This document shows positions 1,917-24,000 of a stretch of DNA of 24,000 bases, piece after piece. The stretch covers positions 1,727,394-1,751,393 of the forward strand of contig NC_009437.1 in the NCBI RefSeq assembly GCF_000016545.1. Reading direction: 5' to 3'. Numbering within the stretch: position 1 is the stretch's first letter; each line of letters starts with the position of its first letter. The stretch is from Caldicellulosiruptor saccharolyticus DSM 8903 (GTDB taxonomy: Bacteria; Bacillota; Thermoanaerobacteria; Caldicellulosiruptorales; Caldicellulosiruptoraceae). The notes beneath the pieces were generated by a model. That model was given only the letters and a program-made list of their open reading frames with translations, had not been told where the DNA came from and ran no database searches. A program made the translations under genes and the position numbers.

Positions 1917-1935
1917 AGATTTATCATAAAAATGG
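1917..1935. repeat. left copy of the 19-bp perfect direct repeat flanking the IS (AGATTTATCATAAAAATGG)
   Basis: Identical 19-mer at 1917-1935 and 3191-3209, each 6 nt outside the terminal inverted repeats. Confidence 0.85.
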
Positions 1936-3027
1936 GTACGTGGTGAAGACATATTTACCACCAAATTTATTACAGAACAGAGAATAGAAGGTGCCTACTT
2001 TTTTCATAATATCCTCAAGAAGTAATGTAGGAAATTGAAATATATGGGAGGAGACCAGAGATTTTGAAGCTATGAATTTTTCGAATGGTGTCCTCCCGTT
2101 CATTCCTTTACCATTATGAGGTCTGAAAAAGTTCCATGTATCTTGCCATTTCTGGGCTCTTTGAATAAATTCATCTTTTGTTTTACATCTTTCAGCATGA
2201 ATCATTAAAAAATACTCATCATCAGCTCTATGTGAATTTTCAATTATACCCATTAAATGCTTTGCTTTTGGTGGAATAGGATTTAGTTCTACACCCAAAA
2301 ATGACAGCATCTCATTCCACTGCTTTAACTTTCTTTCGCTTCCTCCACAAAATTCTGCTCCATTGTCTAATCGGATCTTTATTATATTTCTTACATTATG
2401 AGTTCTTAACCATAATGCAACTAAGGATATGAACATAAATCCAAAAGCGGATGAAAGTTCGTAAGAATAGGCTGTAAATCTTGTTCTTGTTGCAACATCT
2501 ATTATGTTCCACTCATAGCAAGGCAAATTGTATCTTTTCATATGTTCATATACCTCCTTGGGAAGACTTTCTTTGTCTAAAAGATGTTTTGTATCAAGCT
2601 GAAATTCAGAAAATGGGATAAGAGTTTCATAATCGTATAGACTTCTTTCACCTTTTTTTGTTCTTTTTGTTTTTCGAGCTACAGAGTTTCTTCTAAGAAT
2701 TGACTTTATTGTGTTTTCACTTATTTTGATACCATATTTTCTGAGAAGATAAAAAGACAAACGTCTATATCTAAAACCAGTTTTTTTAGACTCTTCGACA
2801 ATAAAATTTTCGAGTTCAGAAGAAAGCTTTTTGGGAGAAGATTTAGGTTTTTTTGATTTATCTTCAAGAGGACCGTAGACAGCTCTTCTTACGGTATGTC
2901 TTGATACACCTAATATTTTAGCAGTTTTTGATACGTTTTTGTTATTTGATTCAAAGACTTTTCGAACTAATTCTCTAGCTTTTTGAGGGGATATTTTTCT
3001 TAGTTCGTGGTATGATATAATATTCAT
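1924..3027 (-). CDS. DDE transposase, integrase-core (rve) type with N-terminal HTH; IS481/IS3-superfamily-like
   Basis: 367 aa from ATG 3027, with GGGAGGA 9 nt upstream. HTH SKTAKILGVSRHTVRRAV. Candidate catalytic triad: D in FQLDTKH, D in RLDNGAEF, E in GIIENSHRADDEYF. The stop codon lies inside the left 19-bp direct repeat. The family cannot be fixed without a search. Confidence 0.85.
   Translation of the reverse strand: MNIISYHELRKISPQKARELVRKVFESNNKNVSKTAKILGVSRHTVRRAVYGPLEDKSKKPKSSPKKLSSELENFIVEESKKTGFRYRRLSFYLLRKYGIKISENTIKSILRRNSVARKTKRTKKGERSLYDYETLIPFSEFQLDTKHLLDKESLPKEVYEHMKRYNLPCYEWNIIDVATRTRFTAYSYELSSAFGFMFISLVALWLRTHNVRNIIKIRLDNGAEFCGGSERKLKQWNEMLSFLGVELNPIPPKAKHLMGIIENSHRADDEYFLMIHAERCKTKDEFIQRAQKWQDTWNFFRPHNGKGMNGRTPFEKFIASKSLVSSHIFQFPTLLLEDIMKKVGTFYSLFCNKFGGKYVFTTYPFL
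1942..1961. repeat. IS terminal inverted repeat, left
   Basis: GGTGAAGACATATTTACCAC matches the reverse complement of 3165-3184 at 18 of 20 positions. Confidence 0.75.
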
Positions 3028-3030
3028 AGT

Positions 3031-3121
3031 AGGCTGTCCTCCCATCCTGGTAGTTTTTCTATTTTTCTTTTGAATATTAGATTACACTTTTTAATTATAT
3101 CAAACAGGAGGGAGGCAGCCT
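3031..3121 (-). promoter_or_regulatory. candidate RBS-sequestering hairpin plus internal promoter of the IS transposase
   Basis: On the minus strand, AGGCUGCCUCCC (3121-3110) is complementary to the transposase SD region GGGAGGACAGCCU (3043-3031): 12 bp with one bulge. An extended -10 (TGATATAAT, -10 hexamer at 3099-3094) lies between the two arms. Transcripts from the element's own promoter would therefore lack the anti-SD arm, while read-through transcripts would contain it. Confidence 0.45.
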
Positions 3122-3951: not shown

Positions 3952-4132
3952 CTTCTTATCAAGAGTGGTGGAGGGACTGGCCCAATGAAGCCCGGCAACC
4001 GGAAAAAGGTATGGGTGCCCTTTTTCTTGGTGCCAATTCCAGCAGGTATTTTTAAAATACCTGGCAGATAAGAAGTAAGAAGATTTAGGAAGAAGTCTTC
4101 TTGTAGCTTATCTGCAGGAAGGCTATTTTTTT
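3952..4132 (+). promoter_or_regulatory. SAM-I (S-box) riboswitch: aptamer 3952-4075 plus expression platform
   Basis: Textbook S-box core: CTTCTTATCAAGAGTGGTGGAGGGACTGGCCCAATGAAGCCCGGCAACC...GGTGCCAATTCCAGCAGG...CAGATAAGAAG. The P1 3' strand (4067-4075) can instead pair with CTTATCTGC (4107-4115) as an antiterminator. A weak hairpin at 4103-4126 followed by T7 (4126-4132) is the likely terminator. Confidence 0.93.
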
Positions 4133-4177: not shown

Positions 4178-5455
<1,278 letters not shown>

Positions 5456-11269: not shown

Positions 11270-14200
11270 TCACCTTTGCATAATTTTTGTAAGCTCTTCA
11301 TATAAGCTACTTAACACACTTTGATAATCCTTTTCACCTATTTCAACAACTTCCATAAGTCTTTCAAGATCTCTTGTTGTCTCTTCGTTTATATAATCTT
11401 GGTAATGTTGTGCAAGGTAAGAATACACTTTTCTTCCGAGTGCAGTTGAACGAATCCTTCTATATTGGTCCTCGAATACATATCCTCTTTTGAAAAGGAT
11501 CTCAACCATTTTAGCATATGTGGATGGTCTTCCTATATTCTTTTGTTTCATCTCATCAATAAGCATTGCTTGGGTGAAAAGAGGAGTTGTGTGTTTCTTG
11601 TAATTTTTCTTTTCTATTATTTGGTATTCCCCACTTTCAAATTTTGAAAAAATTTGAATTGGACTAAACAAAAGCCAGCCCTCTTCTATCACTTCAATGG
11701 GCATTTCTTTTTCTATTTCTTGTTTGTCAAACCTGAAAATTAGTTTTTGATATCTTACAAGAGGGTTTTTCATCTGGCTTGTGAAAAATCTATTGAATAT
11801 AAGTTCGTACACCTTAATATGATTAGCTGTCAAACCCTGAGCAAGTCTTTCACTTGACAACTCTTTTAACTCCAAAGGTGAAATTGGCTTAACAGGTCTT
11901 ATTGCCTCGTGCGCACCTTCCGACCCGAAACTTCGGCCTACAAACAAATCTTTTTTGCCTATCTTTTCTAAGTATAATCTTGCCATATTTTGACCTGTAA
12001 GTGATATTCTGTTTGAGTCAGTTCTGTGATATGTTATAAAACCATGTTCAAACAAAAACTGTAAAATTTCCATAATTTCCTGTACGCTAAGGTTTAATTT
12101 TTGTGATGCATAAGACAAAAGTGTGGGTGTATTAAATGGCAAAATAGTCTCAAGCTCTTTTTCATTTTCTTCTACTACATCTACCAATACCTTGTCGCCA
12201 TCTATTTTGCCTTCTGCCTCAAATCCAAACCCATTTTCAAATCTCACAAAAGTAAATTCTTTTTGACTCTTTGCATATTCCTTTTCTCTTTCTATAATCC
12301 AGCCAAGGATGGTAGATTGGACTCTTCCTGCAGATAAATTATAGCTTTGAAAATTTTTCTGGAGCTTTGAGCTTAGTTCAAAACCCACCCACCTGTCTTC
12401 AATTCTACGTACAATCTGAGATTTTACAAGGTTTGCATTAAAATCGCGCTGGTTTTTTATAGCACTTTCAAAACCAAATTTTGTTATTTCGTGCATTTCA
12501 ATTCGTCTTAAGTTCGGATTTACAGGTTTTAGGTACTGGGATATATCCCATGAAATCTTCTCACCCTCAACATCAGGGTCTGTTGCAACTAAAATTTCGT
12601 CTACTTCAGCTGCTATCTCACGAAGCACCTTTAATATCTCCTTTTTGTCATCAATCTTATCAGAGCCACATTTAGGACATGAAGAATACTCATCAGTAAA
12701 CTGTGTACCACAGCTTGTACAGCGTTTGATAGAGTTATAGTATGGGATAAAATTGCCGTTTGATATTTCTACCCCATGCACTCCTGTTTTTGTATCAAGG
12801 TCATACACATGTCCTTTTGAGGCAGTTATGAGCAAAATTCCATCTGGAGTTACTGATTCGTATACAGAGAGCCTTCCATACCTTCTTGTTGATGCTTTTT
12901 CTAAAAATCTTGAAATTGTCTCTGCTTTTGTGGGCGATTCTACAATCATAAGCCTTGACTTTAAATCTGAAGACCTCTCGTCTATTAAAGCCTCATTTCT
13001 GCTCATTTCAACCTCTTTTATTAGATCCTCAAAACATACCTCATCTTCGGTTTTCCATTCTTCATCAAGCAAAAACATGAGTCTTGACCTGAGACTTTCG
13101 AAAAGTAGATCATCATCTTCAAATAGAATTGAAACTCCTTTTGTCAAAGAGCTACCCAGCATTCGTGATGTTCTTCCAGAGCCTTGGATATATGTGAAAA
13201 CATCAGGGAAGAATATCTGACCCTCATCTGAGATTTTCAAGTTTGAGAAAGACTTTTTAATAAAATCAGTCCATCTATCTTGAGGAATATATTTTTTTAC
13301 TACCTCTCTTAACCTTTCGACTTGATATTTGTCTATGTTTTTAAAGAAACTTTTTAACTTGGGATGTTCTTCAAGATAGTCAGAAAACACTCTTTCTAAG
13401 ACAAACCGGGGTGCCTTTTCTATATCTGTTGAAAACCTAAACGAGGGCGTCCCCCAAAATATTGAATACTTTATTCTCAAGGGTAGGTCTATGCCTCTCA
13501 CAAGCTTTCCATAGTATGAGTATATGCCACATAGAATTTTGAGCTTTCCATCTTTGAATTCCTCAAAACTTTTTTCAAAATCTTCCCACGTTTTACCAAC
13601 AGATATTCCTTCGTTTTCTAAAAAGTTTGTCACATCTTTGCCTTCTTCTTCATTTTCAACAAATAAGAGGATGCCATCATTGAGGATTTTGATTGTCTCA
13701 AGCAGCTTTACTTTTGACTTTCCAGCAATTCTAATATTTGTAATATTTCTTACGCTGAATGTGAATCTACCTATTTCGAAACCAAGTAGCTCTCTAAACA
13801 AAAGAGGTTTTAGTCCTTGTGGCTTTGCAGTGGCAGAAGATACAATGAGAATGCCTTTAGACGGAGTAGAAGATGTGCCGTTTTGTTTTTGTTCAGGGTA
13901 CTTAACACCTTTTTTGAGGTTTTCAAATGTCTTGTCAATTGTCTTTTGGTCAATTCCAATCATCTGCAAAAGAGTGTCAATGTTTTTTGAAGATTTCAAA
14001 ATTGCATCAACATCATCTACAAATACTAATGAAAACACCTTTTTTGCAAGGTCATCTTTTCGCTTTGATATAAATTGCGATGAAACAATCAAGATGTCAA
14101 ATTCACCGTTTTCAAAGTTTTTCTCAAACTCGTCCTTTTCAGTTCTTTTCATTGATGACTTATAAGATAGAATTTTAACATTTTCTTTTGGCTCTTTATT

Positions 14201-14635
14201 GGCAAACTCAAGAAGTCTCTGATGCGTTTGTTCAACGAGCGATACAGTAGGAAAGATTAAAGCTACCTTCTTACCATTTTTTGCCATCCACAGTGTTGCA
14301 ACAAGTCCAAATGTTGTCTTACCAAGGCCTGTGGGAGCAATTAATGTGAAGCTTTTTGAAAGTAAAAGCCGCCTTGCCCAGAGCCGTTGATATCCTGTCA
14401 TCGGTTTTCCAACCTTTGATACAAAAAACTTTTCAAACTCTTTATATTCATTTTGAAAATTCCAAAAGTAGGCATAATCTTTTAGGCTATTATGTTCTTT
14501 CAAGCTTTCAAGGATATTCATATTATTTTCAAATGGTAAACACTTTTCACATGGAAGTCCTTTTTGATTTCTTGTATCTGAGTTGATACCACCACAGTTT
14601 ATGCATGAATGATAATATTTTGCTCCTGTTGCCAA
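11270..14635 (-). CDS. rgy: reverse gyrase (helicase-like domain fused to type IA topoisomerase)
   Basis: 1121 aa. N-terminal zinc finger CINCGG...CEKC. SF2 motif I APTGLGKTT and motif II VFVDDVD. Toprim start LMIVESPTKAETISRF. Second zinc ribbon CTSCGT...CPKCG. Topo IA active-site region ITYHRTDS. TTG start 8 nt after AAGGGGGA. Confidence 0.97.
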   Translation of the reverse strand: MATGAKYYHSCINCGGINSDTRNQKGLPCEKCLPFENNMNILESLKEHNSLKDYAYFWNFQNEYKEFEKFFVSKVGKPMTGYQRLWARRLLLSKSFTLIAPTGLGKTTFGLVATLWMAKNGKKVALIFPTVSLVEQTHQRLLEFANKEPKENVKILSYKSSMKRTEKDEFEKNFENGEFDILIVSSQFISKRKDDLAKKVFSLVFVDDVDAILKSSKNIDTLLQMIGIDQKTIDKTFENLKKGVKYPEQKQNGTSSTPSKGILIVSSATAKPQGLKPLLFRELLGFEIGRFTFSVRNITNIRIAGKSKVKLLETIKILNDGILLFVENEEEGKDVTNFLENEGISVGKTWEDFEKSFEEFKDGKLKILCGIYSYYGKLVRGIDLPLRIKYSIFWGTPSFRFSTDIEKAPRFVLERVFSDYLEEHPKLKSFFKNIDKYQVERLREVVKKYIPQDRWTDFIKKSFSNLKISDEGQIFFPDVFTYIQGSGRTSRMLGSSLTKGVSILFEDDDLLFESLRSRLMFLLDEEWKTEDEVCFEDLIKEVEMSRNEALIDERSSDLKSRLMIVESPTKAETISRFLEKASTRRYGRLSVYESVTPDGILLITASKGHVYDLDTKTGVHGVEISNGNFIPYYNSIKRCTSCGTQFTDEYSSCPKCGSDKIDDKKEILKVLREIAAEVDEILVATDPDVEGEKISWDISQYLKPVNPNLRRIEMHEITKFGFESAIKNQRDFNANLVKSQIVRRIEDRWVGFELSSKLQKNFQSYNLSAGRVQSTILGWIIEREKEYAKSQKEFTFVRFENGFGFEAEGKIDGDKVLVDVVEENEKELETILPFNTPTLLSYASQKLNLSVQEIMEILQFLFEHGFITYHRTDSNRISLTGQNMARLYLEKIGKKDLFVGRSFGSEGAHEAIRPVKPISPLELKELSSERLAQGLTANHIKVYELIFNRFFTSQMKNPLVRYQKLIFRFDKQEIEKEMPIEVIEEGWLLFSPIQIFSKFESGEYQIIEKKNYKKHTTPLFTQAMLIDEMKQKNIGRPSTYAKMVEILFKRGYVFEDQYRRIRSTALGRKVYSYLAQHYQDYINEETTRDLERLMEVVEIGEKDYQSVLSSLYEELTKIMQR

Positions 14636-17008: not shown

Positions 17009-18010
17009 TTAACTAAAGAAATACTCAATTACCTTCTCAGCTATCTGAACAGCGTTTGTAGCAGCACCTTTTCTAATATTGTCAGCAACAACCCAAAGAT
17101 TTACACCACTTTCAACAGATTCATCTCTTCTGATTCTTCCAACATACACTTCATCCTTACCAGATACATAGATTGGCATTGGATACAAAAGATTTTCTGG
17201 GTCGTCCTGAACAACAACACCTGGTGCCTGTCTTAAAGTTTCTTTTAATTCTTCTAAATCAAATTGTTTTTCAAATTCAACGTTAATGGACTCACTATGA
17301 CCATTGAAAACAGGTACCCTTACGGTTGTTGCTGTAATTTTGATAGAGTCATCATGCAAAATCTTCCTTGTTTCATTTATCATCTTCATTTCTTCTTTTG
17401 TATATCCATTTTCTAAGAAAACGTCAATATGAGGAATTACATTTCCTGCAATTGGATATGGAAATTTCTTTGGTGGAGCACCTTTTAAACCTTCTTCCAA
17501 ATCTAAATATCCTTGATACCCAGCACCAGAAACTGCCTGATATGTTGAGTACACAATCCTCTTTATTTTGTACTTGTCATGCAAAGGTTTTAAAACAACA
17601 ACTGCCTGAATTGTTGAGCAGTTTGGATTTGCGATAATTCCCTTATGCCACTTAATATCCTCTGGATTTACCTCTGGTACAACCAAGGGAACATCTTTCT
17701 CCATACGCCATGCGCTTGAGTTGTCAATTACAATGCAGCCTTTGGAAGCTGCTATTGGTGCAAAGTGGAGAGAGGTAGATGCACCAGCTGAGAAAAGTGC
17801 AATGTCTATCCCTCTATCAAATGAATCTTCTTTTAGCTCTTCTACAATGTATTCCTTTCCCATAAACTCAACCTTTGTACCAGCTGACCTGCTTGAAGCA
17901 AATAGGTAATATTCTTCAACAGGAAGATTTCTCTCTTCTAACACCTTCAAGAATGTTCTACCAACCATACCAGTTGCGCCAACTATTGCCATTTTGATTT
18001 TCCTTGCCAT
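17009..18010 (-). CDS. asd: aspartate-semialdehyde dehydrogenase
   Basis: 333 aa. IVGATGMVG NAD fold, active-site NPNCSTI, SGAG motif. GAGGAGG RBS upstream. Confidence 0.95.
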   Translation of the reverse strand: MARKIKMAIVGATGMVGRTFLKVLEERNLPVEEYYLFASSRSAGTKVEFMGKEYIVEELKEDSFDRGIDIALFSAGASTSLHFAPIAASKGCIVIDNSSAWRMEKDVPLVVPEVNPEDIKWHKGIIANPNCSTIQAVVVLKPLHDKYKIKRIVYSTYQAVSGAGYQGYLDLEEGLKGAPPKKFPYPIAGNVIPHIDVFLENGYTKEEMKMINETRKILHDDSIKITATTVRVPVFNGHSESINVEFEKQFDLEELKETLRQAPGVVVQDDPENLLYPMPIYVSGKDEVYVGRIRRDESVESGVNLWVVADNIRKGAATNAVQIAEKVIEYFFS

Positions 18011-18073
18011 TTTTGAATTAGCCTCCTCTAAAAATATTTTACTTTATTTCTGCATATAAAATCAAATAAAACT

Positions 18074-18099
18074 AAAAAAAGCTGGTCTTCAGCCAGCTT
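18074..18099 (-). terminator. terminator of the lysine-riboswitch expression platform
   Basis: On the minus strand: AAGCTGG CTGAAGA CCAGCTT followed by T7. It lies between the aptamer and asd. Confidence 0.7.
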
Positions 18100-18143
18100 C
18101 TGTTAATATATTGTATAACAAGAATTATACAATATATTAACAG
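18100..18143. repeat. perfect 18-bp AT-rich palindrome between the L-box aptamer and its terminator
   Basis: CTGTTAATATATTGTATA (18100-18117) and TATACAATATATTAACAG (18126-18143) with an 8-nt spacer. It abuts the P1 3' strand on one side and the terminator on the other. Confidence 0.85.
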
Positions 18144-18314
18144 ATAGCGCTCCACCAATCTTTCAATTGGTGACAGTTGCATGGATATTCTCCATGCACC
18201 CAGGGAAGTTTCCAAGAAGAAAGAAACTCCCTTCGGCGTCTTTTCCTTTCAGCAGGCTTCATCTGTGTCTTCTTTCACATCCGCCTGCCTACTCTTAAAA
18301 GACGCGCCTCTATC
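18143..18314 (-). promoter_or_regulatory. lysine (L-box) riboswitch aptamer
   Basis: On the minus strand: GATAGAGGCGCG...AAGAGTAG...GTGAAAG...GCCGAAGGG...CTGGGTGCATGGA...CCATGCAACTGTCACC...TGGTGGAGCGCTATC. These are the conserved L-box blocks in the correct order, upstream of lysine-branch genes. Confidence 0.9.
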
Positions 18315-18355
18315 TATTAATATATTATGAGCTATTCACTTTTTGCGTTTATTTA

Positions 18356-18385
18356 ATAATATCATTTAACCTGCAAGGATGTCAA
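18356..18385 (-). promoter_or_regulatory. sigma-A promoter of the L-box/asd operon
   Basis: On the minus strand: TTGACA (18385-18380), 18-nt spacer, extended -10 TGATATTAT (18364-18356). Confidence 0.6.
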
Positions 18386-18450
18386 ATTTTTTTGTTTGCT
18401 GAACTTGAGATATAATTGCAACCATCTGTGGCTTTTTCATTTTGAAATTG

Positions 18451-18459
18451 TGATATAAT
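18451..18459 (+). promoter_or_regulatory. candidate extended -10 promoter element for the HEPN-MNT-ispF unit
   Basis: TGATATAAT at 18451-18459, 37 nt upstream of the HEPN start. No good -35 was found. Confidence 0.4.
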
Positions 18460-18495
18460 TAATCCAAGGCAAAAACTTTTTGAGGAGAATTTATT

Positions 18496-18894
18496 ATGAA
18501 TAAAGAAAGAGTAAGAGAAAGGTTGGCTGACTATCAAAAAGCTCTTTTTCGGTTAAAAGAAGCATTGGAAGAAGACACTTCAAACCCGCTATTGTATGAT
18601 GCAGTGATTCAAAGGTTTGAATTTACCTATGAACTTGCTTGGAAGCTTTTAAAAGCATATCTTGAATTAGAAGGAATTTCAGATGTAAACACACCGCGGA
18701 AAGTTTTTAAAGAAGCTTTTTCAGCAGGACTCATTGGTGATGGAGATGTCTGGATTTCTATGATTGAAGACAGGAATTTAACTGTTCACACATATGATGA
18801 AAAAATAGCTCAGCAGATATATTTAAGAGTGAAAGAAAAATATTTTTCTAAGTTTTACGACCTTGAGAGAAAGATGAAAGAGGTGATAGAGTGA
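18496..18894 (+). CDS. HEPN-domain protein, HI0074 family (nucleotidyltransferase substrate-binding protein; HepT-like toxin)
   Basis: 132 aa. N-terminal helix YQKALFRLKEALEE, RFEFTYELAWKLLKAYL, and the R-x4-H-x-Y motif RNLTVHTY (18772-18795). GAGGAG RBS 8 nt upstream. Confidence 0.88.
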   Translation: MNKERVRERLADYQKALFRLKEALEEDTSNPLLYDAVIQRFEFTYELAWKLLKAYLELEGISDVNTPRKVFKEAFSAGLIGDGDVWISMIEDRNLTVHTYDEKIAQQIYLRVKEKYFSKFYDLERKMKEVIE

Positions 18895-19190
18895 GATTTG
18901 GAATTCCTGAAGATGTTTTAGATAAAATTGTGGTGGAGTTAAAGAAAAGAAAAAATATTAAAAGAGCATTGTTATTTGGCTCACGAGTAAAAGAAGATTA
19001 TAAATACAATTCAGATATTGATATAGCCATATTAACAGAAGGAGAAATAGAACCGGGCCTTATGTCAGACTTAGACGAAGCAGCAGGGATTTACAAGATA
19101 GATATAATCGATTTTAATAAATTGAGTTGCCAGGCACTTAAGGAGAAAATACTAAAAGAGGGTGTAGTAATTTATGAGAGGGGAGATTAA
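18891..19190 (+). CDS. minimal nucleotidyltransferase (MNT, HI0073 family; MntA-like antitoxin)
   Basis: 99 aa. Pol-beta-type motif LFGSRVKEDYKYNSDIDIAIL (GS...DxD). The GTG start overlaps the HEPN stop (GTGA). Confidence 0.88.
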   Translation: MRFGIPEDVLDKIVVELKKRKNIKRALLFGSRVKEDYKYNSDIDIAILTEGEIEPGLMSDLDEAAGIYKIDIIDFNKLSCQALKEKILKEGVVIYERGD

Positions 19191-19196
19191 AGAGCA

Positions 19197-19670
19197 ATGT
19201 TCAAAGTAGGTTTTGGTTTTGATGTGCACCGCTTTTCAGAAGACAGAAAACTAATCTTAGGTGGTGTTGAGATTCCATTTGAAAAAGGGCTTTTAGGTCA
19301 TTCTGACGCAGATGTTTTAATTCACGCAATAATTGATGCCATCCTTGGTGCTATGGGTGAAAATGATATTGGAAGACTTTTCCCCGATACTGATATGAAA
19401 TACAAGGATATCTCAAGTATAGTCCTTTTAAAGGAAGTTTCGAAACTTTTGAAAAATAAAGGCATGAGTATAATTAACATAGATACAACAATAGTTGCAC
19501 AAAAACCAAAGATTTCTCCATATACAGACGAGATGAAAACAAACATTGCGAAGGCTTTAAATATTGAAAAAACTCAAGTAAACATAAAAGGGAAAACAAC
19601 AGAAGGTTTGGGATTTGAAGGAAGAGAGGAAGGAGTTTCAGCTTACGCTATTGTTCTATTACACGAATAA
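19197..19670 (+). CDS. ispF: 2-C-methyl-D-erythritol 2,4-cyclodiphosphate synthase
   Basis: 157 aa with [28 protein letters not shown] and FPDTD, the canonical IspF motifs. The start is only 6 nt after the MNT stop. Confidence 0.96.
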
Positions 19671-19674
19671 ATGT

Positions 19675-19703
19675 TTGATAAATTTTATTTATAATGGTAT
19701 AAT
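19675..19703 (+). promoter_or_regulatory. sigma-A promoter of the NurA-HerA-Mre11 operon
   Basis: TTGATA (19675-19680), 17-nt spacer, extended -10 TGGTATAAT (19695-19703). Confidence 0.6.
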
Positions 19704-19754
19704 CTTAAGTGATTGATAGTGACCGATTACATTAAATATAGTGGATGTGAGAAA

Positions 19755-20927
19755 ATGTTAGATTTACACAATTTAGCTCAACAAATAAGTGAAAAGAGAA
19801 ATATGATGTTGCAAAAAGAAAAAGAGATAGAAGAAAATATTCAAGAGGTTTTTAATTTTTTAAGCTTTTTAGATAAGCAAAAAGTTGAAAAGGTTCTTTC
19901 TAAAATTCCAAGGAAAGATGAGAAAAACGAAATCTTATTTTGCCTTCCATATTATAGCAACTTCAATGAATTTATGAAGGGTTTTCCCTGTGAGGTTCAG
20001 ACAAGTTATGAAGTATTTGCAGTTGATGGTAGCAATACTGAGATTGACAGGCATATCTCACAGCCTTACTACCTTTTGAACATTGCCTGTGTAGAAATTA
20101 CTTATGACAATGAAAACAGCAATTTTAATTACCAAACATATCCTTACATTTACCTTGATGAAGAGCTTTATTCAAAAAAAGAAGCTCAGGCAATCAAAAG
20201 CTCATCTGAAATATCAAGAGAAAGACAAACAAAAGAGTACATGGCTATCTTAGAGTATGTTGAAAACTCTTTACCAAAAAGTGAGATAAGACTTGTTCTT
20301 TATGATGGAAATCTCATTGATTGGACACAAGACAGGCAGGGTTTACGCTTTGGCAGAAGAGCAAATCTTGAGCTTGAAAGGATTTTTAATGTGGCAAAAC
20401 AAAAAAACGTAGCAGTTTGTGGTTTTATTTCAATGCCAAAGAACTCTATTATCTCTAATCTTTATAGGATATATAACTGTGAAAAGATGCGGATTGACTG
20501 TAAAGAATGCAGCAGAGAAGAAAAGAGAAATTGTGAAAAGATAGAGAGAATAAAAGATGTATTTTTGTTTTCGGACCTAAAAAGTGGACAGCACTCTAAT
20601 GTATTTTACACCTTAGGAAGAGCATTTGACGAGTTTGAAGACACAGATATTACCTTTGTTTATCTTGCAACTGGCTACGAGATTGCACGAATAGAAATTC
20701 CTGTTTATGTTGCAAAAGATGAAAAGTGGCTTAAGAAATGTATCGGTGCAATATATCACCAGTGCCAGGTTGGATTTGGTTATCCTATATCGCTCACACA
20801 TGCTCATGAGTTTTCTACTATCTCACATCAGGACAAAGCAGCCATAGAAAATATCCTTTTGGGGGTTGGAGATGATATTTTGCCATATTCTGCAAAGAAG
20901 AATAATAAGGTCAAGAGGATAGTATAA
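19755..20927 (+). CDS. nurA: NurA-like 5'-3' nuclease
   Basis: NurA-type motifs in order: FAVDGSNTEIDRH (catalytic DGS), VLYDGNLIDW, GFISMPK, and C-terminal GYPISLTHAHEFSTIS. ATG 19755 is preferred because TTG 19713 falls at the predicted transcription start. The N-terminus is uncertain (ATG 19803 is also possible). Confidence 0.75.
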   Translation: MLDLHNLAQQISEKRNMMLQKEKEIEENIQEVFNFLSFLDKQKVEKVLSKIPRKDEKNEILFCLPYYSNFNEFMKGFPCEVQTSYEVFAVDGSNTEIDRHISQPYYLLNIACVEITYDNENSNFNYQTYPYIYLDEELYSKKEAQAIKSSSEISRERQTKEYMAILEYVENSLPKSEIRLVLYDGNLIDWTQDRQGLRFGRRANLELERIFNVAKQKNVAVCGFISMPKNSIISNLYRIYNCEKMRIDCKECSREEKRNCEKIERIKDVFLFSDLKSGQHSNVFYTLGRAFDEFEDTDITFVYLATGYEIARIEIPVYVAKDEKWLKKCIGAIYHQCQVGFGYPISLTHAHEFSTISHQDKAAIENILLGVGDDILPYSAKKNNKVKRIV

Positions 20928-20943
20928 AAAAGGAGTTGTGCTG

Positions 20944-21531
20944 GTGATGGCAGTTGGTGAGATAATTGACATTTCTTTTACTCAAATTACATGTGAAGCA
21001 AAAGACCTTGACAATATCCCTACAGCCGGTCAGTTTATAAGATTTGAGCTTGATAACTACAAAGTCTTGGGGTGCGTTACAAGGTATGACGTAGGAAGTA
21101 TATCACAAGAAGGATATCCGCGGGCCCTGTGGAAAACCCCAGAGGAGCTGAAAAGGTTTTATCCACAGCTTGAGCAGATTTTAAAAGGTTATTTTAAGTG
21201 TATAATCCTTGGCTTTATATCAAATGGTAAGTTCATAAACTGCCTTCCGGACAGAAGTATAAGGCTTCACACAATGGTTGAGTTGGCAGACAAAAACGAT
21301 ATCCTTTTGGCAACACAAAGCAGTTTGTTTCTAAACTCTGTTATAAAAGCAAAGGATGTTGACGTTGTTGAGGTAATTCCGTGGATACTCTACTTTGCCT
21401 ATAGTGCAAGAGAAAAGGATTATGAATACATAGAACATATGGGGAAAGAGCTCAACGCATATCTTAAATATGACTTAAATCTTCTTACACCTATTATTGA
21501 AAGACTGGAAAATTTGATTTCTCACTTATAA
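20944..21531 (+). CDS. uncharacterised protein, N-terminal HAS-barrel-like domain without ATPase motifs
   Basis: VGEIIDISFTQITCEAKDLDNIPTAGQFIRFELDNYKVLGCVTRYDVGS has the same pattern as the N-terminus of the downstream HerA (IGKVIGGSFLEGLAIKVED...IGSILV) and of archaeal HerA HAS barrels. No Walker A or B motif is present, and the C-terminal half looks helical. AAGGAG at 20930-20935; the start is GTG 20944 or ATG 20947. Confidence 0.45.
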   Translation: MMAVGEIIDISFTQITCEAKDLDNIPTAGQFIRFELDNYKVLGCVTRYDVGSISQEGYPRALWKTPEELKRFYPQLEQILKGYFKCIILGFISNGKFINCLPDRSIRLHTMVELADKNDILLATQSSLFLNSVIKAKDVDVVEVIPWILYFAYSAREKDYEYIEHMGKELNAYLKYDLNLLTPIIERLENLISHL

Positions 21532-21550
21532 AAAAAAGGGTGAGTAAAAG

Positions 21551-23218
21551 ATGCCGGAAAAATTTTATACTGGTCAAAGGATTGGCAAGGTCATAGGCGG
21601 CTCATTTTTAGAAGGGCTTGCAATAAAGGTTGAAGATGATTCTATCATTGAAGATACAAGAATAGGTAGCATCTTAGTTAGCCAAACAGAGAAGAAAAAA
21701 TACTATTGCATGCTCACTGATATGGTCATAGAAGGCATGAACAAGCAATCTTTAACTGAGCTTCCAAGAGGCGCTGAGTTTTCTCTTTTAAATAGAATCA
21801 CAAAAGGAACTTCAATTTACACAATATTTAAGGCCCAGCCTGTTCTTGCATTTGATCTGCAAGAGGGGAAAAACCAGCCAATAAGAAACATTCCTCTTCA
21901 TGCTTCAAGTGTCAGAAGGGCAACATATGATGATATCCAAGATGTATTTGGAAGTTTTGAAAAAGACCCCAAACGTTTTTTCCCAATCGGAAGCGTTCTT
22001 GACATGGATGAAAGTACCCAGGTGTGCATTGACATAGACAGGTTCATTGAAAGAAGCAGTGGTATTTACGGTCGAACAGGTACAGGGAAGTCATTTATTG
22101 CAAGACTTATAATGGCAGGGATTATTCTTTCTGACAAAGCCTCTTTGCTGATATTTGATGCGCATTCAGACCACGGTCCAGATAGCATTGATGAGGAAAA
22201 CTATCATGTAAAAGGTTTAAAAAGTCTTTTTGGAAACAAAGTTCAGATAATGACAATTGAAAGCAGTTCAGTAAACAGAGCAGGAGTGCTTCCAATTGAG
22301 ATTGATGTGAGAGATGTTGAGGTTGAGGACATCTTGTCAATCTCTGAAGAGCTAAACTTAAATGAAACAGCTGAACAAGTGATGATTGCTCTCAAAAACA
22401 AGTTAGAGGCACAAGGAAGACATTGGCTTCATGAAGTCTTGGTAAATAGTGAGGAACTTGCTGAGGAGTTTAAAGATAGTGAGGCTATTGTCAACAGAAG
22501 TTCACTTTTAGCGCTTATAAGAAAACTTTCTGTGTTAAAAGAGCTTCCTTATCTTAAGTACGACAGAAGTCCTGGAACAAATTCTATTGATATAATCTTG
22601 GATTATCTTCAAAGAGGGATTAGTGTTGACATAACCTTTGGCAAAGGAGACAAACTCCTACACTACTTATTTGTCACAAACGTGTTATCAAGACGAATTT
22701 ACAATAAATACATGGAGATGTATGAAAAACACATATCAAACAGAAAAAAATACCCAGCACCAAGACCGCTCGTGATTGCAATAGAGGAAGCCCACAGATT
22801 TTTATCACCGGATGTTGCAAAACAGACAATATTTGGCACAATAGCAAGAGAGATGAGAAAAGCAAAGGTAAGCCTTATGTGCATAGACCAGCGTCCTTCA
22901 CAAATAGACAGTGAGATTGCTTCACAAATAGGCACAAGGGTGATTTTAGCACTTTCTGATGAAGCGGACATTGCAAGTGCACTTGCTGGCATGAAAAATA
23001 GTAAACAACTGAGAGCTATTATTGAGTCTCTTGATTCAAAGCAGCAAGCGCTTGTTATTGGCCATGCTGTTCCAATGCCAATTGCAATAAAAACAAGAGG
23101 GTATGACCAGAGCTTTTACGATTTTGTTTCGATTTACGGTCCAAAGACTGATGTTGAAGACAATTACCGGAAGGTACTTGAAGCCTCAGAAGAGTTTCTG
23201 AAAGATATGGAGTATTAG
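21551..23218 (+). CDS. herA: HerA-type ATPase/helicase (FtsK-HerA superfamily)
   Basis: 555 aa. N-terminal barrel, Walker A GRTGTGKSF, Walker B/EEAH LVIAIEEAHRFL, and CIDQRPSQIDSEIASQIGTRVILALSD (Arg finger/sensor). Confidence 0.85.
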   Translation: MPEKFYTGQRIGKVIGGSFLEGLAIKVEDDSIIEDTRIGSILVSQTEKKKYYCMLTDMVIEGMNKQSLTELPRGAEFSLLNRITKGTSIYTIFKAQPVLAFDLQEGKNQPIRNIPLHASSVRRATYDDIQDVFGSFEKDPKRFFPIGSVLDMDESTQVCIDIDRFIERSSGIYGRTGTGKSFIARLIMAGIILSDKASLLIFDAHSDHGPDSIDEENYHVKGLKSLFGNKVQIMTIESSSVNRAGVLPIEIDVRDVEVEDILSISEELNLNETAEQVMIALKNKLEAQGRHWLHEVLVNSEELAEEFKDSEAIVNRSSLLALIRKLSVLKELPYLKYDRSPGTNSIDIILDYLQRGISVDITFGKGDKLLHYLFVTNVLSRRIYNKYMEMYEKHISNRKKYPAPRPLVIAIEEAHRFLSPDVAKQTIFGTIAREMRKAKVSLMCIDQRPSQIDSEIASQIGTRVILALSDEADIASALAGMKNSKQLRAIIESLDSKQQALVIGHAVPMPIAIKTRGYDQSFYDFVSIYGPKTDVEDNYRKVLEASEEFLKDMEY

Positions 23219-23248
23219 AAATTCTTTTTAATAAAGGGTGGAACATAA

Positions 23249-24000
23249 ATGTCAATACGAGGTGTTCACACAGCAGATCTTCATTTTGGTGTGACAACAT
23301 ACAGCAAAGAAACTCCAGATGGACTGGGATCGCGTGTTCATGATTTTTTCAGGACATTTGATAGAATATTAGAGTATATAAGACAAAACCATATAGACCT
23401 TTTGCTCATCACTGGTGATATATTTAAAGACAGAGAGCCAAACTCTACCTTGCGAAATATGTTCTACAAAAGGGTTGTTGAGATTGCAAAAGAAGGTATA
23501 TTAGTTGTAATAGTTCCTGGGAATCATGACATGCACCCATTTGAAGCAAAACATCATTCAGTCAAGGTTTTTGAAATATTTGAACAAGAAAATATTGTTG
23601 TAATGGATAAGCTTTTTGAAACGAAAGTGTTTGATATAAAAGGTGAAAGACTCAGAGTTATAGCTGTACCATATCTTTACCTTGAAAGGTTTATAGATAA
23701 AACAATTCCTGAGAAGATTGAGCAGATTGAGCAAAACATTGCAAATTTTTTTGAAGAAAGATTGGCAGAAATTTTAGACTCATGTGAAGATGATATACCG
23801 ACCATCTTGGCAGGCCATTTTACAGTCAATGAAGCTGAAGTTGGCAGTGAAAGAATGATTATGGTAGGAAAAGATGTAAAGGTGCCACTTTCTGTACTTT
23901 TACATCCAAAACTTAGGTTTGTTGCCCTTGGCCATATACACAAACCACAGATTTTAAATTCCAAAGACCCGGCAATTGTGTACTGTGGCTCGCCTGACAG
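23249..24000 (+). CDS. sbcD: Mre11/SbcD-family nuclease (3' end outside window)
   Basis: My own translation from ATG 23249 is open to the window end: MSIRGVHTADLHFG...LLLITGDIFKD...VVIVPGNHD...LAGHFTV...ALGHIHKPQ. This gives all five calcineurin-like phosphoesterase motifs in Mre11/SbcD order. RBS AAGGGTGG 8 nt upstream. It is absent from the ORF track because it has no stop in the window. Confidence 0.9.
   Translation, partial: MSIRGVHTADLHFGVTTYSKETPDGLGSRVHDFFRTFDRILEYIRQNHIDLLLITGDIFKDREPNSTLRNMFYKRVVEIAKEGILVVIVPGNHDMHPFEAKHHSVKVFEIFEQENIVVMDKLFETKVFDIKGERLRVIAVPYLYLERFIDKTIPEKIEQIEQNIANFFEERLAEILDSCEDDIPTILAGHFTVNEAEVGSERMIMVGKDVKVPLSVLLHPKLRFVALGHIHKPQILNSKDPAIVYCGSPD

Follow-up and report, generated by a model that had tools for sequence, protein, structure and literature searches.

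A predicted stand-alone HAS-barrel protein encoded between nurA and herA in a bacterial nurA-herA-sbcCD gene cluster

Organization of the cluster

A 24,000-nucleotide stretch of DNA from Caldicellulosiruptor saccharolyticus DSM 8903, hereafter the window, carries at positions 19675–24000 a cluster of genes for DNA-end-processing proteins, with an additional gene, here named X, placed between nurA and herA. Four genes are found on the + strand, all co-oriented, in the order nurA, X, herA and sbcD/mre11. The first, nurA (Csac_1588; 19755–20927, +), encodes a NurA-family nuclease of 390 aa, whose NCBI name is DNA double-strand break repair nuclease NurA. X (Csac_1589; 20947–21531, +) is annotated as hypothetical and encodes a protein of 194 aa and 22 kDa, or of 195 aa when read from a GTG at 20944. 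It is followed by herA (Csac_1590; 21551–23218, +), which encodes a complete HerA-type ATPase of 555 aa, and by sbcD/mre11 (Csac_1591; 23249–24000, +), which is cut by the window end after the first 250 of its 419 residues. The three complete proteins are identical to Csac_1588, Csac_1589 and Csac_1590. The rest of the cluster was obtained from JGI contig L001, which encodes an identical X protein; it contains the full sbcD gene and, beginning 6 nt past its stop codon and outside the window, a Rad50/SbcC gene of 862 aa, the neighbor that a first-pass annotation of the window had expected at this place. The same annotation, made without database searches, had named the four window proteins as NurA-like, HAS-barrel-like (the 195-aa product), HerA and Mre11/SbcD, and had proposed that an extra subunit gene is present in a five-gene end-processing cluster; the four identities were right, and the idea of an extra subunit holds.

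The X protein

Taken alone, X matched nothing in Pfam, NCBIfam or PADLOC, and no solved structure related to it by sequence was found. A model computed with AlphaFold2 (AF2) from a nine-sequence alignment (predicted local distance difference test (pLDDT) 85.3; predicted template-modeling score (pTM) 0.80) is composed of a β-barrel, residues 1–113, followed by a five-helix bundle, residues 116–193. An insertion between barrel strands 4 and 5, at about residues 51–80, is modeled with low confidence (pLDDT 42–56). When this model was compared with the PDB by Foldseek, the top 50 listed matches were all HerA chains, aligned through their N-terminal barrels over 119–159 columns, the best being 4D2I (E 5e-7), the SIR2-HerA and DUF4297-HerA complexes and the Thermococcus HerA-NurA complex. 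The Pfam HAS-barrel profile (PF09378) was matched by 14 of 22 diverse X relatives, with a best E of 2e-9. The predicted structure is that of a stand-alone HAS-barrel with a helical bundle. The bundle, of ~80 residues, has no detectable relatives, and profile searches found no regulatory domain or ligand-binding signature in it. The most conserved motif of the family, YPQLEQILKGYF here (21160–21195, +) and (E)QPQIFxLLKTxF in most phyla according to the family alignments, is located in and just past the low-confidence insertion between strands 4 and 5.

NurA, HerA and SbcCD

HerA matches DUF87 (PF01935) with 128 bits (E 6e-37) and contains the Walker A motif GRTGTGKS (residues 174–181), EEAH (412–415) and DQRPS (446–450). 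The GTGKS, EEAH and DQRPS residues, which stand for the Walker A, Walker B and arginine finger elements, are invariant in the HerA alignment. The AF2 model of HerA (pLDDT 76.8) places the strands of an N-terminal barrel at residues 10–123, followed by a RecA-like core with helical inserts. Searched with Foldseek, it gave full-length matches to the HerA of Sulfolobus and Thermococcus and, equally, to SIR2- and DUF4297-associated HerAs, at E ~1e-22. An orthologue of this HerA (P0196) is carried by Caldicellulosiruptor bescii, which is genetically tractable.

The possibility that X is the detached N-terminus of a split HerA was considered and ruled out, as HerA and its orthologues retain a barrel of their own: PF09378 was matched in 12 of 13 HerA orthologues of this clade, and the window HerA itself, which gave no match to that profile at E ≤ 0.1, has the barrel in its model. 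Since HerA has its own barrel, X is an added component and no HerA fragment. The barrels of the X and HerA models show matching strand order with an offset of ~9 residues. At the last barrel strand, a P-x3-I-x-L-H-x2/3-V-x2-A motif is common to X (21247–21288, residues 101–114) and HerA (21878–21922, residues 110–124); its residues are invariant inside the X family and inside the HerA family. The pairwise similarity (E 0.55) is not significant; the motif is suggestive and may reflect descent from one ancestor or a functional site present in both proteins.

NurA matches the PF09376 profile with 60.7 bits (cut-off 21; E 2e-16) over profile positions 2–251 of 254. In a 12-sequence alignment that spans at least four phyla, D91-G92-S93, D184-G185, Y343-P344 and H351 are invariant and the G-Y-P...H motif is intact. 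By reference to published NurA structures, the D-G-S, D-G and Y-P...H motifs are predicted to be catalytic in this protein; a search among solved NurA structures for sequence relatives of the window NurA gave no match, the sequences being too divergent. The same alignment contains four invariant cysteines (C242, C249, C252 and C260; 20478–20534, +), spaced here as C-x6-C-x2-C-x7-C and invariant across phyla in this NurA clade. Their arrangement suggests a putative zinc-ribbon-like insert, which may bind metal. We know of no description of such an insert for the characterised archaeal or Deinococcus NurA.

The window fragment of SbcD scores 105.6 bits against TIGR00619 (cut-off 77.65; E 3.6e-30) and 1.7e-15 in E against Metallophos, and the full 419-aa protein reaches 118.3 bits against TIGR00619. 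Its phosphoesterase motifs DLHFG, GDIFKD, GNHD, AGHF and GHIH are all present. The 862-aa protein encoded downstream contains SMC_N, AAA_23 and SbcC_Walker_B domains and has Rad50/SbcC matches in NCBIfam, and its CPVC zinc hook aligns with the CPLC of the Tectimicrobiota homologue described below. It scores 233.8 bits against TIGR00618, below the cut-off of 478.5, and therefore its assignment to the SbcC subfamily is loose.

Distribution and gene neighborhood of the X family

A word-indexed search with X returned relatives confined to the Caldicellulosiruptoraceae. A profile search of 1.84 billion cluster representatives gave 311 at E ≤ 1e-3, 45 of them at E ≤ 1e-10, almost all of 190–250 aa. 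When one genome was scanned for each species, relatives turned up in at least 451 species genomes; the count is a minimum, as X of the Caldicellulosiruptor type escapes the search patterns. The gene neighborhood was surveyed at the 80 best loci, where open reading frames (ORFs) were called and then classified by hidden Markov models grown from the window proteins; these loci come from Dadabacteria, Thermodesulfobacteriota, Latescibacterota, Gemmatimonadota, Armatimonadota, Dehalococcoidia, Zixibacteria, Planctomycetota and others.

Flanking sequence was sufficient at 74 loci; NurA is encoded immediately 5′ of X at 69 of these, and at one further locus it lies 1.4 kb upstream. HerA is encoded immediately 3′ of X in 42 of 72. 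The most tightly linked pair is nurA-X, with stop and start codons that often overlap. The first-pass annotation had asked whether the 195-aa protein always co-occurs with NurA, HerA and Mre11: the association with NurA and HerA is borne out at these frequencies, its constancy is not, as orphan X loci exist and nurA-X-herA can stand without mre11 next to it. In Latescibacterota and Gemmatimonadota, nurA-X-herA is followed by unrelated genes (a glycosyltransferase, DUF218 or a TPR/PMT protein). In Dadabacteria and Thermodesulfobacteriota, nurA-X is found alone at the X site, with herA not adjoining; HerA orthologues of 42–43% identity stand elsewhere, between acpS and ompH-lpxD, and herA of this clade can be unlinked from nurA-X. 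Lone HerA orthologues, 42% identical to the window HerA, lie between comM/acpS and ompH-lpxD or other housekeeping genes (L087, 8001–9599; L088, 8001–9605). A 689-aa ORF 5′ of nurA in Dadabacteria was considered as a divergent HerA and ruled out; it encodes an unrelated secreted protein.

The five-gene array recurs in every member of the Caldicellulosiruptoraceae examined, and in distant ones (HerA 66% identical) the order ispF-nurA-X-herA-mre11-rad50-ybaB-recR is unchanged. A metagenome-assembled genome (MAG) of Ca. Aquicultorales contains nurA, X, herA, mre11 and rad50 with overlapping boundaries. In a MAG of Ca. Tectimicrobiota (L094, 1–12579; BPKO01000001.1) the order is radA-recA-mraZ-(second DUF87 ATPase)-rusA-nurA-X-herA-mre11-rad50-DEAD/MZB helicase, all co-oriented; in this supercluster the radA gene is of the radA/sms type, the mraZ gene is mraZ-like, the second DUF87 ATPase has 634 aa and a DnaX_C-like tail, and Rad50 has 1010 aa. 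The first-pass annotation had offered a thermoadaptive machine as one explanation of the cluster, which is not supported for the nurA-X-herA core, since many phyla possess it, Latescibacterota and Gemmatimonadota commonly so. Fusion of this core to sbcCD may be confined to thermophiles (Caldicellulosiruptoraceae, Oceanithermus, Aquicultorales and Tectimicrobiota of hot springs), which, if true, would echo the original archaeal observation.

Transcription unit and genomic setting

The ispF gene ends at 19670, and the 84-nt gap before nurA carries a sigma-70-type promoter-like site (19675–19703, +), TTGATA-17 nt-(TG)TATAAT, ~50 nt 5′ of the nurA start. This candidate agrees with the consensus at 11 of 12 positions, has the TG extension of an extended -10 element and is the top + strand match in 18000–24000, and its -35 region is kept in two distant Caldicellulosiruptoraceae. 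Promoter-like sites are found in the region at chance level (18 found, 20.2 expected), and judged by sequence the site is a plausible promoter. The gaps between nurA, X, herA and sbcD measure 19, 19 and 30 nt, a ribosome-binding site of the GGAG/GGGTG type is found in each, and no convincing terminator was found inside the window gene cluster. One promoter followed by four co-oriented, closely spaced genes had been described at the outset, and as statements about the sequence both parts stand. From the co-orientation, the gaps of 6–30 nt, the absence of a convincing internal terminator and an order kept in three phyla, we infer that the cluster may be co-transcribed.

The sequence CGAATAAATGTTTG (19664–19677) shares letters with both the ispF stop codon and the -35 hexamer of the nurA promoter-like site. 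It agrees at 12 of 14 positions with the Cheo box CGAACNNNNGTTCG, the LexA site of Firmicutes, and is kept in two distant Caldicellulosiruptoraceae. The number of equally close Cheo-box matches in the window is at the level of chance (5 found, 2.8 expected), and the conservation is partly that of the ispF stop region; SOS (LexA) control is not claimed, and the site is noted as a lead only.

Reverse gyrase (11270–14635, -) is encoded 5.1 kb from the cluster, as had been pointed out before; a functional link drawn from this proximity is not supported, since the gene is on the opposite strand behind unrelated operons and lies outside the cluster unit. Between the two are a lysine-riboswitch operon, a toxin-antitoxin pair and ispF. 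The lysine riboswitch (18137–18320, -; 139.7 bits) precedes asd-dapA-dapB-ACT genes, and the reverse gyrase gene, which shares their strand, follows this operon after 136 nt. Just 5′ of ispF, at 18496–19190, two genes with overlapping ends encode a HEPN-like protein (NTase_sub_bind/HepT) and a minimal nucleotidyltransferase (Polbeta/NTP_transf_2), which likely form a toxin-antitoxin module of the HEPN/MNT type; in the Caldicellulosiruptoraceae bacterium PP1 this position 5′ of ispF is held by a MazE-like pair instead (L089, 871–1406). Farther away, a SAM riboswitch (3953–4074, +; 92.8 bits) is found ahead of a Cys/Met PLP-enzyme gene at 4181. A 373-aa ORF (1924–3045, -), whose sole match is a weak one to HTH_32, sits in the lowest-GC segment of the first 10 kb (GC 0.32), with GC and AT skews of opposite sign to those of the adjoining segments, and is possibly a transposase or insertion sequence.

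Proposed function of the cluster

We consider that the cluster is probably a chromosomal housekeeping operon for DNA-end processing, nurA-X-herA-sbcD(mre11)-sbcC(rad50), in which X binds NurA as a stoichiometric third subunit. In HerA, NurA is bound by the HAS-barrel face (PMC9960219), and the solved complexes from Deinococcus and Thermococcus show the NurA dimer seated on the HAS domains of the HerA hexamer, with α1 and the loop before it making the contacts (PMC9960219; PMC12977600). Because the HAS-barrel face docks NurA in HerA, because the conserved X motif lies in the equivalent insertion, and because nurA-X is the tightest pair, X would be expected to contact NurA and HerA and to take part in resection. 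According to what is known of the archaeal and Deinococcus systems, SbcCD/Mre11-Rad50 would recognise and open the DNA ends, and the HerA hexamer would then translocate duplex DNA into the NurA dimer, which would degrade it. X would bind NurA via a loop/helix insertion equivalent to the NurA-docking loop and α1 of HerA. The HAS-barrels of HerA and of the F1-ATPase α/β subunits pack side by side into a six-membered ring, and X, if it forms such a ring, could be inserted between the NurA dimer and the HerA ring as a barrel “collar” or adaptor. X might instead keep NurA ready and govern when HerA can dock.

The survey reveals a separate NurA/HerA clade that extends over many bacterial phyla and is nearly always accompanied by X, a protein apparently built from the domain with which HerA holds NurA. 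A more far-reaching proposal is that X is the obligatory third subunit of a distinct three-component bacterial NurA-X-HerA machine present in many phyla, with a free HAS-barrel ring or collar on NurA that controls the feeding of DNA by HerA; we put it forward tentatively, its chances being somewhat below even. If true, the two-component Deinococcus and archaeal complexes would be unrepresentative of most bacterial systems. Should X be a subunit or a gatekeeper, it would offer a route to how a nuclease-motor complex, coupled to Mre11-Rad50/SbcCD, is restrained or directed in vivo.

Several observations weigh against X as a partner of NurA and HerA in end resection. The sequence similarity between the X and HerA barrels is not significant (hhalign probability <1%, BLASTP E 0.55). 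The characterised Deinococcus, Thermus and archaeal NurA-HerA complexes function without an X-like protein. The physiological role of NurA-HerA is itself debated, even for archaea, where a 2026 study proposes that HerA-NurA perhaps destroys foreign double-stranded DNA and questions end resection (PMC12977600). In a KSB3 genome herA is found 3′ of X with no nurA upstream, and neither nurA nor herA adjoins X in Ca. Thermosaccharophagus, Planktothrix and Babeliales. These divergent loci (L092, 5340–7555; L073, 5956–7646; L091, 5394–7239) have the contexts rnhB-X-ftsY in Babeliales, X-tsaD in Ca. Thermosaccharophagus, and an isolated X adjoining an AF_1845-family gene in Planktothrix. Such orphan contexts would be expected if X were functionally unrelated to NurA and HerA, a small conserved protein, for example nucleic-acid-binding or housekeeping, that merely shares the operon slot. 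This explanation is very improbable: the placing of X next to nurA at 69 of 74 loci from many phyla, with stop and start codons that overlap, greatly exceeds what chance would produce, the predicted fold of X is exactly that of the NurA-docking domain of HerA, and the orphan members are the most divergent of the family.

The fold and linkage that suggest X as a subunit are equally compatible with an inhibitory role, in which X, as a negative regulator or decoy, mimics the HAS-barrel face of HerA and occupies NurA, or caps the HerA barrel ring, until damage occurs or SbcCD engages an end. In vitro, NurA-HerA breaks down both strands, an activity that would have to be held in check (PMC12977600); the nurA-X pair is retained where herA is unlinked; and the HerA barrel is complete, so that a second barrel is not needed to build the ring. 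However, the tight translational coupling and the ~1:1 gene dosage fit an adaptor just as well, and the helical bundle of X has yielded no domain or signature of a regulator, and we regard the inhibitory role as unlikely.

A third alternative, also raised in the first-pass annotation, is that the cluster is an anti-phage or anti-foreign-DNA module analogous to SIR2-HerA and DUF4297-HerA; NurA and SbcCD would attack linear invaders with HerA as their motor, and X would be a sensor or adaptor. The sequence and fold of HerA fail to discriminate repair from defence HerAs, its matches to defence profiles and structures being about as good as those to repair ones, and the HEPN/MNT-type toxin-antitoxin pair lies 0.6 kb upstream. 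The remaining evidence is unfavorable to such a module. In PADLOC only generic HerA models were matched, NurA and X giving no match at all, and the cluster encodes neither a SIR2 nor a DUF4297 domain. No X relatives were found on 2.9 million viral contigs and 72,556 plasmids, or among the viral structure models of BFVD. The slot between ispF and ybaB-recR is constant, the flanks keeping their order across the Caldicellulosiruptoraceae, distant members included, and in other phyla the cluster genes have housekeeping genes as neighbors. Genes linked to the cluster include recR and, in a single phylum, recA, radA and rusA. A housekeeping role in recombination and repair is therefore favored by the conserved flanks, the links to recombination genes and the absence of PADLOC matches for NurA and X and of mobile relatives, and the defence alternative is retained as quite improbable because of the ambiguity of HerA and the archaeal results mentioned above (PMC12977600).

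Comparison with known systems

The archaeal herA-mre11-rad50-nurA operon of Sulfolobus, Pyrococcus and Thermococcus has four protein families in common with the cluster, likewise in one co-oriented unit. The HerA model aligns over its full length with the archaeal structures 4D2I (HerA) and 9X1M (one of the HerA-NurA structures 9X1L/9X1M), the predicted catalytic motifs of NurA are kept, and the HAS-barrel is the NurA-docking element. The window cluster differs from the archaeal operon in that nurA comes first, the phosphoesterase is SbcD-like, NurA has the four-cysteine insert and the X gene is found between nurA and herA; a stand-alone HAS-barrel subunit is not mentioned in the literature found on the archaeal complexes. 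The earlier label “archaeal-style” is loose, since bacterial SbcD is the best-scoring assignment of the phosphoesterase and many bacteria possess a HerA of this clade.

Among bacteria, nurA-then-herA pairs as in the window are found in Deinococcus radiodurans (DR_0836/0837) and Thermus thermophilus (nurA-hepA). Descriptions of these NurA-HerA systems speak of two-gene units or “duets” and place no gene between the two, whereas the clade of the window is spread over many other phyla; recent literature places bacterial herA-nurA in Deinococcus-Thermus and sees it as acquired from archaea (PMC12977600). A search of the window HerA against the sequences of solved structures at E ≤ 1e-3 returned no chain labelled Deinococcus HerA. 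In Oceanithermus profundus, sbcD and sbcC are found downstream of herA. Its order nurA-hepA-sbcD-sbcC was already noted, with no mention of a fifth gene (PMC5448004), so that the novelty first attributed to the gene order as a whole does not extend to nurA-herA-sbcD-sbcC and is limited to the interposed X gene.

The defence systems SIR2-HerA (Nezha), DUF4297-HerA and TdpAB are built on a hexameric HerA motor whose HAS-barrel recruits an effector, as the HerA of the cluster would be, and defence HerA structures are matched by both X and the window HerA. The effector of the window cluster would instead be NurA with SbcCD, with no SIR2 or DUF4297, and its context is no defence island. The predicted barrel fold of X is that of Pfam HAS-barrel PF09378, the N-terminal “crown” of HerA and of the F1-ATPase α/β subunits; unlike these, X has no ATPase domain, its predicted barrel is fused only to the helical bundle of ~80 residues, and ring formation by X is hypothetical.

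The literature searched contains no mention of Csac_1588-1592 or of a stand-alone HAS-barrel partner of NurA, with the reservation that Iyer 2004 or Constantinesco 2004 may hold an earlier one. Within that literature, two things appear to be undescribed: how widely this NurA/HerA clade extends among bacteria, and the conserved partner that is predicted to be a stand-alone HAS-barrel. The operon itself is of a known kind, whose four-gene bacterial form has already been described, and only the interposed gene is new.

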